The notes beneath the pieces are model-generated. The model did no database searches. It was not told where the DNA came from and worked only from the letters and a program-made list of their open reading frames with translations. This document shows, piece after piece, positions 3,786 to 60,422 of a stretch of DNA of 64,000 bases (its first letter is position 1; each line of letters begins with the position of its first letter). The DNA lies in NCBI GenBank assembly GCA_965221955.1, contig CBDCTA010000029.1, positions 495,852 to 559,851 of the forward strand. Direction: 5' to 3'. The DNA is from Gammaproteobacteria bacterium. GTDB taxonomy: Bacteria > Pseudomonadota > Gammaproteobacteria > UBA4575. The position numbers were made by a program, and so were the translations under genes.

Positions 3786-4859
3786 CTAGTTTAGTGTATG
3801 TTGTTGTAATGCCCATGCAACATGTTCTCTGACTAATTCGCTTGCATGGTTTCGTTTTTCTTGTAATGCGCGAAGTATTTTCGGTGAGCTGGATGCATTG
3901 CCTAGTGCTACCGCAATATTCCTCAGCCAGCATTCGTAGCCAACTCGCCTTATGGCAGAGCCTTCAGTATTTTTTAGGAAATCCTCTTCGCTCCAATTAA
4001 ATAAATCAATTAACTGCGGTGCATCTAAATTATTACGCACAGCAAAATCTGCCAGCTCACTTTTTTGTTCAAAGCGATTCCAGGGGCAATATAGTTGGCA
4101 GTCATCACAGCCATAGATGCGGTTACCCATCGCTTTTCTAAATTCAACAGGAATGGAGGTTTTTAATTCAATCGTGTGGTAAGAAATGCAACGTCGTGCA
4201 TCAAGTTTATACGGTGCAATGATTGCCTGAGTTGGACAAACTTCTATGCAGGTTTGACAGGTTCCGCAATGATTTTCGACACGCGAATCTATAGGTAATG
4301 GTAAATCGGTATATAGCTCACCAAGAAAAAACCATGAACCACATTCTTTGTTAATTAAATTGGTGTGTTTGCCTATCCAACCGAGACCGGCTTTTTCTGC
4401 TAAGGCTTTCTCAAGCACGGGGGCGCTATCGGTAAATGCTCGATAACCAAATGGCCCTACTGTATTCGCTATTTTATCTGCAAGTTTTTGTAAGCGTTTG
4501 CGAATCACTTTGTGATAGTCGCGCCCTAATGCATAGCGAGAAATATAAGCTTGTTCATAATTAGCTAATACTTCTTCTTCGCTTACTGCGTCTGGAGTTT
4601 GATAGTTAATACGTGTGGAGATGATACGAATAGTTCCAGGCACGAGTTTTTCTGGACGTGTGCGCTTCGTACCATGCTCACCCATGTAATACATTTCTCC
4701 GTGATAACCTGCATCTAGCCAATTCATTAAATGCGTTTCATGATCATTTAATTCAGTATTGCTGATACCGATTTCATCAAAGCCTAATTCTTTTCCCCAG
4801 TCTTTTATATCTTGAGCAAGCTTTGAAAAATCTATAGTTGGGTTATTCATTGCTAACAT
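3786..4859 (-). CDS. queG: tRNA epoxyqueuosine(34) reductase
   Basis: 357 aa with 4Fe-4S ferredoxin-type Cys motifs (CGTCQTCIEVCP, CDDCQLYCP) and a QueG-like C-terminus. It is divergent from nnr, as queG(yjeS)/nnr(yjeF) are in E. coli. Confidence 0.85.
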   Translation of the reverse strand: MLAMNNPTIDFSKLAQDIKDWGKELGFDEIGISNTELNDHETHLMNWLDAGYHGEMYYMGEHGTKRTRPEKLVPGTIRIISTRINYQTPDAVSEEEVLANYEQAYISRYALGRDYHKVIRKRLQKLADKIANTVGPFGYRAFTDSAPVLEKALAEKAGLGWIGKHTNLINKECGSWFFLGELYTDLPLPIDSRVENHCGTCQTCIEVCPTQAIIAPYKLDARRCISYHTIELKTSIPVEFRKAMGNRIYGCDDCQLYCPWNRFEQKSELADFAVRNNLDAPQLIDLFNWSEEDFLKNTEGSAIRRVGYECWLRNIAVALGNASSSPKILRALQEKRNHASELVREHVAWALQQHTLN

Positions 4860-8763: not shown

Positions 8764-9330
8764 CTAGCAACATTGATCCTTATTTAAGCTGTTTTTTTGC
8801 TTATACTCGATCACCTTTCCAAAACGATCCTTTTCAATTTCACAACAAGCTAGAAGTTCTTCTTTTAATTTAATGCGTCCTCGCTGTATACGTGACTTCA
8901 TTCCTGAAACCGAAATACCTATTCGCTCTGCGGCATCAGCTTGCTTAATTTCATTGAAGTCTGCTAATAGCAGAGCTTCCTTGTATTTCGGTTCCAGCTT
9001 GTTTGTAAGTGGTCTCAAACATTTGGCAAATTCACTATCTACGTTGTCAGGCATACTTTCATAATCAGCTATTGTAGTTTCAAGGTCATTAACATCATTT
9101 GATGCATTTATATTCGAGTGTTTTCGGTAATAGTCTGTAATTCTATTTTTGGCAACGATGTAAATCCATGCAAGTGGATTTTCAGCATCAGTTAACGCGC
9201 CCTCATTTTGTAGTACGCTTAAGAGAATGTCGTGTACTAAATCCTCAGATACATCGACATCCACTTTGGTACGAATATACTTGGTTAATAAGGATCGCAA
9301 CTCATCCCAAGTTGTATTTAATTCGGACAT
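8764..9330 (-). CDS. ECF (sigma-70 family, group 4) RNA polymerase sigma factor with a short Cys-pair C-terminal extension
   Basis: 188 aa. Region 2 reads DLVHDILLSV...WIYIVAKNRITDYYRK and the region 4 HTH reads ADFNEIKQADAAERIGISVSGMKSRIQRGR. The roughly 35 aa tail contains two CC pairs (LLACCEI...KDQCC). Confidence 0.8.
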   Translation of the reverse strand: MSELNTTWDELRSLLTKYIRTKVDVDVSEDLVHDILLSVLQNEGALTDAENPLAWIYIVAKNRITDYYRKHSNINASNDVNDLETTIADYESMPDNVDSEFAKCLRPLTNKLEPKYKEALLLADFNEIKQADAAERIGISVSGMKSRIQRGRIKLKEELLACCEIEKDRFGKVIEYKQKNSLNKDQCC

Positions 9331-9735
9331 TTATGCACAACACGCACTTGATTTTGAGGCATTGGCTTCATCGGGATTATCGTTGGTTATGGTGTACCAC
9401 TCCCAATTTAGTCCTTGCGGCTCGGTTGACCACACTTTGTCTTGTGTCGCAAAGCAGCATGTTGTTTGATCTTCAATTTTGTTTGCGATGTCATCACGTT
9501 CGAGTCGCTTTATTACCTCACCCAAATCATCATTTTGATCTACTTCCACTCCAAGATGATTGATTCTGTCATTCGCATTGGGATCTTCAATCAGAACCAG
9601 CTTCAATGGTGGATTATCAATCACAAAGTTTGCGTATCCCTTTCTTCGTTTATGTGGCTTAGTATCGAAGAGTTTTGTGTAATAGCTTACAGCTTCGTCA
9701 ATATTCCTTACGTTTAAGGCTAATTGTAGTCTCAT
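9331..9735 (-). CDS. VOC-family metalloenzyme, ArsI/CadI-like (candidate C-As lyase / metal-induced dioxygenase)
   Basis: 134 aa. The N-terminus MRLQLALNV..LFDTKP.KRRKGYANFVIDNPPLKLVLIE...NHLGVEV matches the ArsI/CadI signature. It has a vicinal Cys pair TTCCFATQDKVW and a C-terminal SACCA. Its stop abuts the sigma start codon (TAA-ATG). Confidence 0.6.
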   Translation of the reverse strand: MRLQLALNVRNIDEAVSYYTKLFDTKPHKRRKGYANFVIDNPPLKLVLIEDPNANDRINHLGVEVDQNDDLGEVIKRLERDDIANKIEDQTTCCFATQDKVWSTEPQGLNWEWYTITNDNPDEANASKSSACCA

Positions 9736-12773: not shown

Positions 12774-13154
12774 TTGTATAAATTTATGCAAAAACCAAAC
12801 ATTTCCATCGCAATTCCAAAGCAGCGCTATAAGTTTGGCGCATATACGATTGTTGTACTTGAAGAAATTGAATCTAAGGGTGAAATTGAATTCCTCTATT
12901 TGCTTGCAGGTATTAAAGACGGGCACAATGAGCCTGAAATTTACATCACATGTGAAAAAGCACAGCCAGATTCAATTGAAAAAGGCTCTCACATTATTAG
13001 AGTATTTGCCCAACAATTAGACTCCGAGCAATCGGGTAGTGTTATCGATCAATCCAATTCATGGAGCGATCGAGACGCTTTTGTTTCCTATGGTCTTTCG
13101 GGTTTTAAACAGATGTTGGGTTTAGAAGATGAAGAGCCTTATTTATTAGTGTAG
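12774..13154 (+). CDS. Hypothetical protein (126 aa)
   Basis: ORF with no clear SD and no recognisable domain. It is divergent from the reductase gene. Confidence 0.35.
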   Translation: MYKFMQKPNISIAIPKQRYKFGAYTIVVLEEIESKGEIEFLYLLAGIKDGHNEPEIYITCEKAQPDSIEKGSHIIRVFAQQLDSEQSGSVIDQSNSWSDRDAFVSYGLSGFKQMLGLEDEEPYLLV

Positions 13155-36269: not shown

Positions 36270-36818
36270 ATGGGCGAATCAAAACAAATCATTTCTGCAG
36301 CGTTGCAAACTAATGCTAGTCAAGCATCAATGGCAAAAATAAAAAATGGCAAAAATGCTGATGAGCAATTAGCGGATGAAGTTAAAAAGCTAGACCAAAT
36401 CCGTGACATGCTTTTTGGCGAACACGTCGCAGCTTTGCAAGACAAATATCAAACACTAGATAAAAATCTTGATCAAAGCATATCTGTTTTGCGCGAAGAG
36501 CTTAATACCTCAATTGCAGACTTAAAAAAGCAGGTTGATAAGAGATTTGATCAATTGCAAAAGAATTTTCAGGCTGAACAAGTCGATCGTGAGTCACAAC
36601 ATGAAGAGCTAAGCTCTAATCTCGCGTCAATTAATTCAGATATCCTCACAAAGATCGATTTGGAAGCAAAAAGAATCGATCAAGCATTCGATGAACAGCA
36701 GCAGGAATCCACTCGACAAATGAATGAGATGGTTGATTCATTACAAAATGCAAAAGTGGATCGTAAGTCTTTAGCTGCAATATTTAGCCAATTTGCTAAG
36801 GAGCTTGAAGGCTCGTAA
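36270..36818 (+). CDS. Coiled-coil protein (182 aa)
   Basis: Heptad-rich, hydrophilic sequence. It is the first gene of a tightly spaced three-gene + strand cluster. Confidence 0.5.
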   Translation: MGESKQIISAALQTNASQASMAKIKNGKNADEQLADEVKKLDQIRDMLFGEHVAALQDKYQTLDKNLDQSISVLREELNTSIADLKKQVDKRFDQLQKNFQAEQVDRESQHEELSSNLASINSDILTKIDLEAKRIDQAFDEQQQESTRQMNEMVDSLQNAKVDRKSLAAIFSQFAKELEGS

Positions 36819-43063: not shown

Positions 43064-43399
43064 ATGTCAGAACATGCTCTAGATCTTGAGGAAAGAGTAA
43101 GAAAATTGGAACGGATTATGTTTACTGTGCGTATCGCAATTATCGTACTAGTTGGATTCATGATGTATGACGCATTAGCCCCAGATACCGGTTCAGACAT
43201 CATTTTTGCGGATAAAATCAAATCCAGGCAGTTTGTGTTGCTAGGGTCTGGTGATAAACCAGTTGGTTACTGGGATGTTAAAGATAACCATGGTTTTAAG
43301 ATGTACTCAAAACAGGGCGACCACGTCTTATTAGCGCCAGAGGCACTGACTTTTTATCAAGACAAACTGAATCCAGAAGTAAAATCTAAGTACGACTAG
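43064..43399 (+). CDS. Hypothetical membrane-anchored protein (111 aa)
   Basis: Strong SD (aAGGAGaaggaaATG). One TM helix followed by a soluble domain. Confidence 0.5.
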   Translation: MSEHALDLEERVRKLERIMFTVRIAIIVLVGFMMYDALAPDTGSDIIFADKIKSRQFVLLGSGDKPVGYWDVKDNHGFKMYSKQGDHVLLAPEALTFYQDKLNPEVKSKYD

Positions 43400-46617: not shown

Positions 46618-46694
46618 TGGCGCCCCGAGTAGGAGTCGAACCTACGACCTCTCCCTTAGGAGGGGAGCGCTCTATCCAGCTGAGCTATCGGGGC
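46618..46694 (-). tRNA. tRNA-Arg (anticodon CCT)
   Basis: 77 nt cloverleaf read by hand: GCCCCGA acceptor, anticodon loop CTCCTAA, T-arm GTAGGTTCGACTCCTAC, encoded CCA. Confidence 0.85.
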
Positions 46695-46924: not shown

Positions 46925-47011
46925 TGGTGCCGAGGGAGAGAATCGAACTCTCACTATGTTTCCATAACCGGATTTTGAATCCGGCGCGTCTACCAGTTCC
47001 GCCACCCCGGC
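46925..47011 (-). tRNA. tRNA-Leu (anticodon CAA)
   Basis: 87 nt class II tRNA: GCCGGGG acceptor, anticodon loop TTCAAAA, long variable arm, GTTCGATTC T-loop, encoded CCA. Confidence 0.85.
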
Positions 47012-54529: not shown

Positions 54530-55000
54530 ATGAAACTGAGCACAAAAGGGCGTTATGCTGTGACAGCGATGTTTGATATTGCATTGCACAATCAAACGGG
54601 TCCGGTTTCCTTGTCAGATATAGCTGATCGACAAGGTATTTCATTGTCGTATTTAGAGCAATTGTTTACACGTTTACGACAGCAAGGACTGGTGAAAAGT
54701 ACACGAGGACCTGGTGGCGGCTATTCACTTGCCATCGATTCTGAACAAATTGCGATTTCAGATGTAATTGATGCCGTTGATGAAAACGTCGATGCGACAC
54801 GTTGCGGTGGTAAAGCCGATTGTCAAAACCATCAACGTTGTTTAACTCATGATTTATGGGAAAACTTGAGTGGTGAAATCAGAAGCTATCTCTCAAACAT
54901 TAGTCTAGCTCAAGCAGTGAGCGATTTAAGTGTTCGTAAAGTAGCGAGTCGTCAGGATCTGAGTAATAACCAACAAGTTCATCCTGTTGAGTTTAGTTAA
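54530..55000 (+). CDS. iscR: Fe-S cluster assembly transcriptional regulator IscR
   Basis: 156 aa. [19 protein letters not shown]... is the Rrf2 HTH. Cluster Cys residues are at about 92/98/104. Confidence 0.9.
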
Positions 55001-55039: not shown

Positions 55040-56264
55040 GTGACAGATGTAAAACTACCCATCTATTTAGATTACAGTGCGACTACGCCAGTTGATGAGC
55101 GAGTGGCACAAGCGATGATGGATTGTTTAACCAAAGAAGGTAACTTCGGTAACCCCGCATCACGCAGTCATAGCTTTGGTTGGGATGCAGACAAGGCCGT
55201 TGAAGAAGCGCGAGCTAATGTTGCGGCACTCATTAATGCTAATCCTAAAGAAATTATTTGGACCAGTGGTGCAACAGAGTCTGATAATTTAGCCATTAAA
55301 GGTGCGGCGCATTTTTATCAAAAAAATGGTAAGCATTTAATCACCTGCAAAACCGAACATAAGGCAGTTTTAGATACTTGTCGTCAGCTTGAGCGAGAAG
55401 GATTTGAGGTTACCTATTTAGAGCCGCGTAATAATGGTTTGATTGATTTAGAAGATTTAAAAGCTGCAATTCGTGATGACACCATTTTGATTTCGATTAT
55501 GCATGTGAATAATGAAATCGGAGTGATTCAGGATATTAAAGGCATTGGTGAAATCACACGCGAACGCAAAATTATTTTTCATGTGGATGCGGCGCAAAGT
55601 CCCTGGGAAAGTACCAGTTGATGTGGAAGAAATGAATGTAGATTTAATGAGCCTATCTGCACATAAAGTATATGGCCCTAAAGGTATTGGAGCTTTATAT
55701 GTTCGCAGAAAACCACGTGTACGTATTGAAGCGCAGATTCATGGTGGTGGCCATGAGCGTGGTATGCGTTCTGGTACGTTGGCTACACATCAAATTGTAG
55801 GCATGGGCGAAGCATTTCGGATCGCTAAAGAAGAAATGGCTGCAGATAACGAACGAATTTTAATGTTGCGCAATCGTTTATTAAATGGCCTTAAAGATAT
55901 GGAAGAAATCTATATTAATGGTGACCTTGAACAGCGTATTCCGGGTAACCTAAATGTTAGTTTTAACTTCGTCGAAGGTGAAAGTTTAATTATGGCGCTG
56001 AAAGATATTGCAGTGTCTTCCGGGTCTGCATGTACAAGTGCATCACTTGAGCCAAGTTATGTATTGCGCGCATTAGGACGAGATGACGAACTTGCACATA
56101 GCTCAATTCGCTTCACTATTGGTCGTTTTACAACGGTCGAAGAAGTGGATTATGCGATTGAGTTAATTAGAAAAGCGGTGATTAAATTGCGCGATCTTTC
56201 ACCTCTGTGGGATATGTATAAAGAAGGGATCGATCTTAAATCGATCGAGTGGGCCGCGCATTAA
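55040..56264 (+). pseudogene. iscS: Cysteine desulfurase IscS, split by an apparent +1 frameshift near 55601-55604
   Basis: Two overlapping ORFs (55040-55621 and 55545-56264) in different frames together span full-length IscS. The join falls at ...FHVDAAQS|(P)[21 protein letters not shown]. The frame changes in the CCC run of agtccctggg. Confidence 0.8.
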
Positions 56265-56319: not shown

Positions 56320-56739
56320 ATGGCATATAGTGACAAAGTACTAGATCACTACGAAAATCCACGCAACGTAGGATCTTTTGAAAAAGATGATCCCAATGTG
56401 GGCACCGGTATGGTAGGTGCACCTGCATGTGGTGATGTGATGAAATTACAAATTAAAGTAGGTAATGACGGCATAATTGAAGACGCTAAATTTAAAACCT
56501 ACGGTTGTGGCTCTGCGATTGCTTCATCTAGCTTACTTACCGAATGGGTAAAAGGTAAAACGCTAGAACAAGCGAGTGAAATTAAAAATACCGATATCGC
56601 TGAAGAACTAGCACTTCCACCAGTTAAAATTCATTGTTCAGTTTTAGCAGAAGATGCAATCAAAGCTGCTATTACTGATCTTAAATCTAAAGCTGATGGC
56701 TCAGCAGAAGATAATCAACAACAGAAGAAAATTGCTTAA
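56320..56739 (+). CDS. iscU: Fe-S cluster scaffold IscU
   Basis: 139 aa. MAYSDKVLDHYENPRNVGSF...GAPACGDVMKLQIKV is canonical IscU. Confidence 0.95.
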   Translation: MAYSDKVLDHYENPRNVGSFEKDDPNVGTGMVGAPACGDVMKLQIKVGNDGIIEDAKFKTYGCGSAIASSSLLTEWVKGKTLEQASEIKNTDIAEELALPPVKIHCSVLAEDAIKAAITDLKSKADGSAEDNQQQKKIA

Positions 56740-56748
56740 TCATTAGTT

Positions 56749-57072
56749 ATGTCTATCTCGCTAACTGAAAGTGCAGCTACACACGTAAAAAGTTATCTTG
56801 AAAAAAGAGGTAAAGGTGTTGGTGTGCGGTTAGGAGTGAAAACCACGGGCTGTTCTGGTATGGCATACACCATAGAATTTGCAGACCAAATTGAAGATGA
56901 AGATCAAGTTTTTGAAGACAAAGGCGTTAAGGTTATCGTTGACCCTAAAAGCATGGTCTATCTTGGCGGCACAGAACTCGATTTTACTCGTGAAGGATTG
57001 AATGAGGGCTTTAAGTTTACAAATCCAAACGAGAAAGAGAGATGCGGGTGTGGAGAAAGCTTCAGTGTGTGA
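56749..57072 (+). CDS. iscA: Fe-S cluster insertion protein IscA
   Basis: 107 aa with C-terminal CGCGESF. Confidence 0.9.
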
Positions 57073-57272: not shown

Positions 57273-57815
57273 ATGAATATTGATCTTACTCGAAGCTATT
57301 TCGAGCTATTCGGTTTTGATGAAGATTATTCAATTGATCAAGAACAGTTAGCAGAGAAATATCGAGCCTTGCAAAGCGAATTGCATCCTGATCGCTTTGC
57401 AAACGCAAGCGATCAAGAGCGTCGTGTTTCGGTACAAAATACAGCATATGTAAACGAGGCTTATGCAACATTAAAAAGTGATTTAAAACGTGCGCATTAT
57501 TTACTGCAATTGAGTGATATTGAATTCAACGCGGATGCTGAAACATCAAGTGATGCAGAATTTTTAATGCAAACAATGGAATTGCATGAAAAAGTAGATG
57601 AAGCAAGTAGTGCAGAACAACCATTACAGGTGCTCGATAAATTGTCTATACAGTTGAAGCAAGATCAACAAAATCTTATAGAGCAATTTGCTAGTCAATT
57701 TAAGGTGGATGATATGCCTGCTGCAAAAGATACTGCTCTTAAACTACAGTTCTATGAACGCTTGACTAATCAAGTGCGTAAGCTACAAGAAAAAATAGAA
57801 GAAGAGTTGTTGTAA
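57273..57815 (+). CDS. hscB: Co-chaperone HscB
   Basis: 180 aa. J-domain with HPD (LHPDRF) and a C-terminal helical domain. Confidence 0.85.
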   Translation: MNIDLTRSYFELFGFDEDYSIDQEQLAEKYRALQSELHPDRFANASDQERRVSVQNTAYVNEAYATLKSDLKRAHYLLQLSDIEFNADAETSSDAEFLMQTMELHEKVDEASSAEQPLQVLDKLSIQLKQDQQNLIEQFASQFKVDDMPAAKDTALKLQFYERLTNQVRKLQEKIEEELL

Positions 57816-60053: not shown

Positions 60054-60221
60054 AAATGCGTATTTATGTCTCAATATGTCGTTGTTACAGTTTTTTCCAA
60101 TGCTCATTTACAATCTAGTAAACTGCGCTTCTCAAAAACTGTGCGCCTAATTTCGAGACAAAATCCACTATTTTCAGCGCCCTTGTTGTAACAAAGTCTC
60201 ATCATAGTCGAGGATGTAAAT

Positions 60222-60422
60222 ATGCAATTAAAATGGACGGATTCGTTGGATATAGCCATCGCTTTAGATGAAGCACACCCTGATGTGGACCCTCAATATG
60301 TGAGGTATACGGACTTACATGCCTGGATTTGTGCCCTTGAGGAATTTGATGATGAGCCTGAAGCTTCCAATGAAAAAATTCTCGAGGCGATTCAGATGGC
60401 CTGGTTGGATGAACGTGACTGA
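60222..60422 (+). CDS. iscX: Fe-S assembly protein IscX
   Basis: 66 aa. [30 protein letters not shown] is the canonical IscX/YfhJ sequence. Confidence 0.85.

Follow-up and report, generated by a model that had tools for sequence, protein, structure and literature searches.

A single extra C interrupts iscS in one assembly of an uncultured marine gammaproteobacterium and is probably an error of the consensus sequence

The iscS gene of an uncultured marine gammaproteobacterium is broken, in one assembly only, by a single base inserted in a run of C residues, and nothing else about the gene points to inactivation. At 55601-55603 of the window (the whole stretch of 64,000 nucleotides analysed here), the consensus sequence is probably wrong: when a long contig of metagenomic origin was sequenced or assembled, one C too many would have been called in a homopolymer, the organism's own iscS would be an ordinary uninterrupted gene for a 407-aa protein, and an intact iscRSUA-hscBA-fdx-iscX operon would have that protein as its first enzyme. 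What we infer, namely the absence of the base from the organism's DNA, rests on five things taken together: a full-length IscS is restored when the base is removed, the gene is unbroken in all of the relatives compared, it shows no decay, the operon around it is intact, and the sequence context of the lesion is error-prone.

As deposited, iscS consists of two overlapping open reading frames in different frames, 55040..55621 (193 aa) and 55545..56264. The junction (55595-55613) reads CAA AGT (55598-55600) CCC (55601-55603) T (55604) GGG (55605-55607) AAA GTA and is preceded by GCG GCG and followed by CCA GTT. The upstream frame runs through HVDAAQS into a tail, PWESTS, and ends at a TGA (55619-55621); the +1 frame past the junction continues to the normal iscS stop at 56262-56264. 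The window has the four bases CCCT at 55601-55604, in contrast to the single proline codon (CCN) of orthologues; the lesion would most parsimoniously be a one-base insertion that changed CC to CCC. The features of the break are these:

55040..55600, + strand: 5' part of iscS, codons 1-187, GTG start, ending HVDAAQS (NF010611)
55601..55604, + strand: junction CCCT, site of the one-base insertion
55602..55606, no strand assigned: CCTGG (CCWGG, a Dcm-type motif), overlapping the C-run
55619..55621, + strand: premature TGA, six codons past the insertion, after the tail PWESTS
55605..56264, + strand: 3' part of iscS, codons 189-407 plus stop, in the +1 frame (NF010611)

Membership in the IscS family was judged by the NCBIfam models NF010611 and TIGR02006 at their curated cut-offs. 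Each half by itself scores under the NF010611 cut-off, the N half covering profile positions 3-186 (E 2e-101, 339.9 bits) and the C half positions 188-406 (E 1.8e-126, 422.4 bits); thus, the junction costs the gene a single position of the profile. On the strength of these matches, chance resemblance is ruled out as an account of the IscS identity of either half. Deletion of one base of CCCT yields a 407-aa IscS that reads AAQSPGK across the junction and scores 779 bits against NF010611 (cut-off 548) and 767 bits against a second IscS model (cut-off 643); 404 of its residues align with E. coli IscS (PDB 3lvj, 1p3w) with zero gaps (E 2e-211). A preliminary description of this DNA had placed the frame switch at 55601-55604, which the two-frame ORFs and the NF010611 halves confirm, and had held that removal of one C restores a full-length cysteine desulfurase, as it does, although the product has 407 rather than about 404 residues. 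The same description had taken the two translated halves to be contiguous in IscS homologues: they do belong to one IscS gene, but a single residue, Pro188, lies between them, and it is the codon for this residue that holds the extra base.

The restored protein shares its PLP lysine, its catalytic cysteine and its operon context with E. coli IscS, the housekeeping cysteine desulfurase of the ISC system; it differs in that E. coli has Val185 where the window's lineage has Pro188, and in that the window's frame is interrupted as deposited. The PLP-contacting residues Asp183 and Gln186 (E. coli D180 and Q183) are encoded in the 5' part of the gene. The PLP lysine K209 (in SAHK; E. coli K206) and the catalytic cysteine C331 (in SSGSAC; E. 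coli C328) are both encoded 3' of the break, so the 193-aa product by itself cannot act as a desulfurase. With a frame change at 55601-55604 and a premature TGA at 55619, the deposited gene lacks the uninterrupted frame of an IscS.

The window carries a complete isc operon on the + strand, in the order iscR-iscS-iscU-iscA-hscB-hscA-fdx-iscX, which is also the order in three long syntenic contigs (L081-L083). Its genes other than iscS are:

54530..55000, + strand: iscR, intact, 156 aa (NF008110/TIGR02010)
56320..56739, + strand: iscU, intact, 139 aa (TIGR01999, 227.6 bits)
56749..57072, + strand: iscA, intact, 107 aa (TIGR02011/NF007049)
57273..57815, + strand: hscB, intact, 180 aa; length and order as in L081/L082
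57816..59687, + strand: hscA, intact, 623 aa; length and order as in L081/L082
59715..60053, + strand: fdx, intact, 112 aa; length as in syntenic relatives, exact sequence on the source contig
60222..60422, + strand: iscX, intact, 66 aa; length as in syntenic relatives, exact sequence on the source contig

The seven had been described beforehand as intact, and they are: iscR, iscU and iscA match their families, and hscB, hscA, fdx and iscX have the lengths found in relatives. Two details of the operon can be recorded here. IscU has 139 aa vs 134 aa in its closest full-length relatives; the difference appears to be C-terminal (the window's protein ends ...ADGSAEDNQQQKKIA), as judged without a protein alignment. 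The fdx-iscX spacer (60054-60221) measures 168 nt vs about 27-102 nt in L081-L083, and contains no ORF of note and no Rfam match.

The relatives speak with one voice about the break. The protein comparison set, consisting of the best 120 matches (uncultured marine Gammaproteobacteria, 88-96% identity), is full length throughout (404-425 aa, mostly 407), and all 120 proteins read AAQSPGK, as does the restored IscS. At the level of DNA, 163 loci were compared (80 from genomes, 80 from metagenomes and the three long syntenic contigs); tblastn with the restored IscS gives a single full-length HSP in 163 of 163, and the window alone splits. The codon at the site is CCA, CCT, CCG or CCC in relatives, GCN or ACN in more distant ones, and is followed by GGN. 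To judge from these alignments, the site in relatives is an ordinary sense codon with a freely variable third base, and the four-base junction, confined to this assembly, does not represent a conserved site of recoding. The nearest relative found at the nucleotide level (85% in iscS) is a contig from a sister assembly of the same clade, L164:1-6312 (ena:ERZ25074695:ctg327679_3x_l), which has AGT CCA GGT at the site; pairwise alignment with the window places a one-base gap in the window's C-run.

Sequence from the same species was sought in three ways: a scan of metagenome contigs by exact DNA pattern (CC or CCN at the site) returned 0 matches, a protein-guided metagenome scan reached at best 88% amino acid identity, and a scan of genome representatives at best 94%. 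By exact protein look-up in a collection of 15 billion proteins, the fragment products (the 193-aa protein and a 227-aa C fragment starting at ATG 55581) occur on one 668,600-bp contig only, which is present at both NCBI and ENA. The window's IscA and IscX are single-member clusters at 90%. Fragments confined to one contig, single-member clusters and the absence of same-species matches in these scans together imply that the species has been sampled once.

The possibility that iscS breaks recurrently at this site was considered for IscS fragments of the same 90% cluster and rejected: their breaks lie elsewhere. One fragment (P0122, on L164) breaks after QKNGK, a second (P0125, on L165) is broken by a deletion of about 120 nt, and two more (P0123 and P0124), whose ends lie in or close to the normal frame, may have been truncated by the contig end. 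The deletion in the second of these (L165:2480-2578; jgi:3300001278 BBAY75_10010087) removes what corresponds to window positions ~55511-55631, puts iscS out of frame and apparently lies between short AATGAAAT-like repeats; it could be real or a misassembly. On the same contig iscA is called at only 70 aa.

Nothing in the remainder of the gene suggests that it has been released from selection. The restored IscS has no residue that the 120 relatives lack, and it agrees with them at all 234 positions where they do not vary. Comparisons with five relatives, each at dS 0.84 or more, give a dN/dS of about 0.03 over codons 2-187 and of about 0.01 over codons 189-407, which means that the more conserved half of iscS is the one that the break leaves untranslated. 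A decaying pseudogene is rejected on these grounds, there being one lesion only, no unique residues, 0 of 234 invariant positions changed and dN/dS of 0.01-0.03. A single lesion with no other sign of inactivation must be evolutionarily instantaneous, or bypassed, or not real.

The probable answer is that it is not real. The junction CCCTGGG combines a C3 homopolymer with a CCTGG motif, and nanopore consensus errors are dominated by two classes, homopolymers and CCTGG-type motifs (PMC6591954). The lesion is thus a one-base change, in a run of three or more, in a known error context. The pseudogenization of genes by long-read errors is a recognised and documented problem (PMC12007338), and a 668,600-bp contig from an uncultured lineage suggests a long-read assembly. 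The iscS break has what gene-fragmenting homopolymer indels in long-read and metagenome assemblies have: one base is involved, an otherwise perfect housekeeping gene is split, and the split is seen in one assembly only. The nearest relative, L164, provides a clear example of error-driven gene fragmentation: in this low-coverage long-read sister contig, gene calling splits iscS into four pieces and suhB into three, and there are 9 gap positions relative to the window within iscS (its IscR, with 156 aa, is as in the window). Such artefacts therefore do occur in this gene and in this type of data.

Some facts weigh against a consensus error. The C-run is only three long, and most platforms call a C3 run correctly. 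The assembly, moreover, is generally accurate, since no second split gene was found in the 64-kb window and no indel in its other ~55 genes; an error at any given site is therefore rare a priori. Poorly polished assemblies, in contrast, carry many lesions, and the window has only one in 64 kb, in a short run. A check of 20 other tightly spaced genes gave 17 with complete coverage of their Pfam profiles and three without a Pfam match; the lengths and order of the 18 genes of the 45-64 kb segment match those of their orthologues in L081-L083. An adjacent minus-strand pair, 8764..9330 and 9331..9735, was examined as a candidate split gene and rejected, the two being unrelated genes (SigZ-like and ArsI/CadI). 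All the same, a homopolymer error had been put forward as the likeliest cause in the preliminary description, and the evidence agrees: the lesion lies in a C-run, the gene shows no decay, and 163 of 163 loci and 120 of 120 proteins are unbroken. If the extra base is an artefact, the consequence is purely practical: annotation should treat iscS as intact or mark the break as probably due to sequencing, and metabolic reconstructions should not count the organism among those without IscS.

An evolutionarily instantaneous lesion would be a genuine, very recent +1 insertion in the iscS of the sequenced population, making a 193-aa fragment; the cell would live on another desulfurase (e.g., SufS), on a trickle of IscS made by slippage, or on both. 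This reading is unlikely, although it is the main rival. The visible absence of other indel errors from the 64 kb speaks for it. So does the nature of the insertion, which creates CCC-U, a textbook +1-slippery proline quadruplet at which the slip yields Ser-Pro-Gly, the wild-type peptide (PMC7577736); a shift of tRNA-Pro from CCC to CCU would possibly make this a leaky, classical suppressible CCC-U frameshift. CCC-U sites are read by the sufA6 and sufB2 tRNA-Pro of Salmonella, and slippage at CCC-N is controlled by m1G37 and EF-P (PMC7577736, PMC4519876); even when the tRNA carries m1G37, unprogrammed +1 slippage at CCC-C in E. coli amounts to about 1% (PMC4519876). Mutants of E. coli that lack iscS are viable, with auxotrophies, because SufS compensates, and this tolerance of iscS loss in the presence of SUF makes a real mutation biologically possible (PMC8300815).

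Set against a recent insertion is the strong purifying selection on iscS in this lineage (dN/dS 0.01-0.03, with the gene intact in 163 of 163 loci). IscS also feeds tRNA thiolation and the synthesis of thiamine and Moco, and read-through of about 1% would be a large drop for such a hub enzyme. A fixed knock-out must be extremely young, since zero additional changes have accumulated; iscU, iscA, hscBA, fdx and iscX are all still intact. The likeness to the classical C-run +1 mutations is close in that an insertion in a proline codon run generates CCC-U and the slip restores the wild-type peptide; however, those are laboratory mutations that come with a suppressor or a hypomodified tRNA, and iscS shows no sign of a suppressor or of elevated slippage. 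If the base is real, this uncultured marine gammaproteobacterium would have a fresh knock-out or a leaky allele of its hub sulfur-mobilising enzyme, and a compensating desulfurase would be implied.

The usage of CCC in the window can be noted separately. In its ~57 major ORFs, the base after an in-frame CCC is A in 37 cases, G in 30, T in 8 and C in 6, against first-codon-base frequencies of 0.28 for A, 0.35 for G, 0.18 for T and 0.19 for C. CCC-Y quadruplets are thus depleted roughly two-fold, which could reflect either avoidance of shift-prone CCC-Y or a simple dinucleotide bias.

A bypassed lesion could be bypassed by design. In a programmed, possibly autoregulatory +1 frameshift, the P-site tRNA-Pro would move from CCC to CCU with the A-site UGG awaiting tRNA-Trp. 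The slip is codon-anticodon compatible, with re-pairing, and generates the conserved peptide (PMC7577736), and the zero-frame product ends six codons later in a manner that resembles prfB. Such programming is nevertheless highly improbable. None of the 163 loci and none of the 120 proteins has the shift, and the codon at the site varies freely. No Shine-Dalgarno-like stimulator is found in 55570-55600 (the best anti-SD duplex has -3.5 kcal/mol) and no RNA structure flanking the site beyond that of shuffled sequences (z +0.77 and +0.52). The A-site UGG, moreover, is a sense codon for Trp that accounts for 146 of the window's 18,034 codons, and does not qualify as a slow A site. Other genes of the window contain eight in-frame CCC_T sites; ribosomes evidently decode one of these, the CCC_TGG at 4085(-) of gene 3786..4859, in the zero frame, since a +1 slip there would lead to a stop after 18 codons.

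The comparison with prfB (RF2) is instructive on both sides: the +1 direction, the P-site codon that allows re-pairing and the short zero-frame product are shared, whereas the A-site stop, the Shine-Dalgarno stimulator 3 nt upstream and the bacteria-wide conservation of prfB are all three absent from the iscS site. A literature search for iscS frameshifts or pseudogenes returned only papers on genome decay in endosymbionts and a study of IscR, and no report of recoding. The preliminary description had judged programmed or phase-variable frameshifting to be remote and had proposed to look for conservation of the slippery site; the lack of stimulators and the complete lack of conservation in the 163 loci and 120 proteins bear out that judgment.

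A biochemical rationale for recoding can be constructed. The ms2i6A37 modification of tRNA-Trp requires the Fe-S enzyme MiaB and sulfur derived from IscS. A lineage-specific, prfB-like autoregulatory frameshift might therefore sense IscS through the decoding of UGG, though such a device is scarcely credible here. The loop that it would form, in which low IscS and Fe-S slow the decoding of UGG, slow decoding favors the CCC-to-CCU slip, and the slip makes more IscS, is just as doubtful. The sequence permits the slip; conservation, stimulators and anything else that might argue for an IscS-sensing frameshift are missing, and its chance of being correct is accordingly minute. The lesion would gain broad interest only through a demonstration of regulated recoding, and the evidence speaks against recoding.

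Two further ways of living with the lesion have been weighed. The first is a split enzyme, in which an N fragment (residues 1-187 plus 6 aa) and a re-initiated C fragment would associate non-covalently to form an active desulfurase. In-frame GTG (55623) and ATG (55632) codons do lie 2 and 11 nt past the premature TGA. They have no evident ribosome-binding site (anti-SD duplexes of -4.2 and -3.3 kcal/mol), although several genuine starts in the isc operon likewise have weak SD pairing. The cut, however, falls inside the PLP-binding domain, between D183/Q186 and K209, with the loss of 7-10 conserved residues (PGKVPVD...), and a split gene is found in 0 of 163 loci; a working two-piece IscS is thus hard to believe in. 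The second is transcriptional slippage, in which stuttering of RNA polymerase would restore the frame in some mRNAs. That the site is a homopolymer is in keeping with this but is not specific to it. Productive transcriptional slippage depends on a run of at least about 7, usually A/T, and the run at issue is three C followed by T, which makes the probability of this account vanishingly small.

Elsewhere in the window, tRNA-Arg(CCU) (46618-46694, minus strand) and tRNA-Leu(CAA) (46925-47011, minus strand) lie in the 681-nt gap between a MarR-like gene and queA; the tRNA-Arg(CCU) stretch is 93% identical to L083, and its flanks there are only about 70% identical. Three + strand ORFs, 12774-13154 (126 aa), 36270-36818 (182 aa) and 43064-43399 (111 aa), have no Pfam match at E 1e-6 or better; they tightly adjoin, respectively, mutL, the gene of an OmpA-domain protein and a HAD hydrolase gene.
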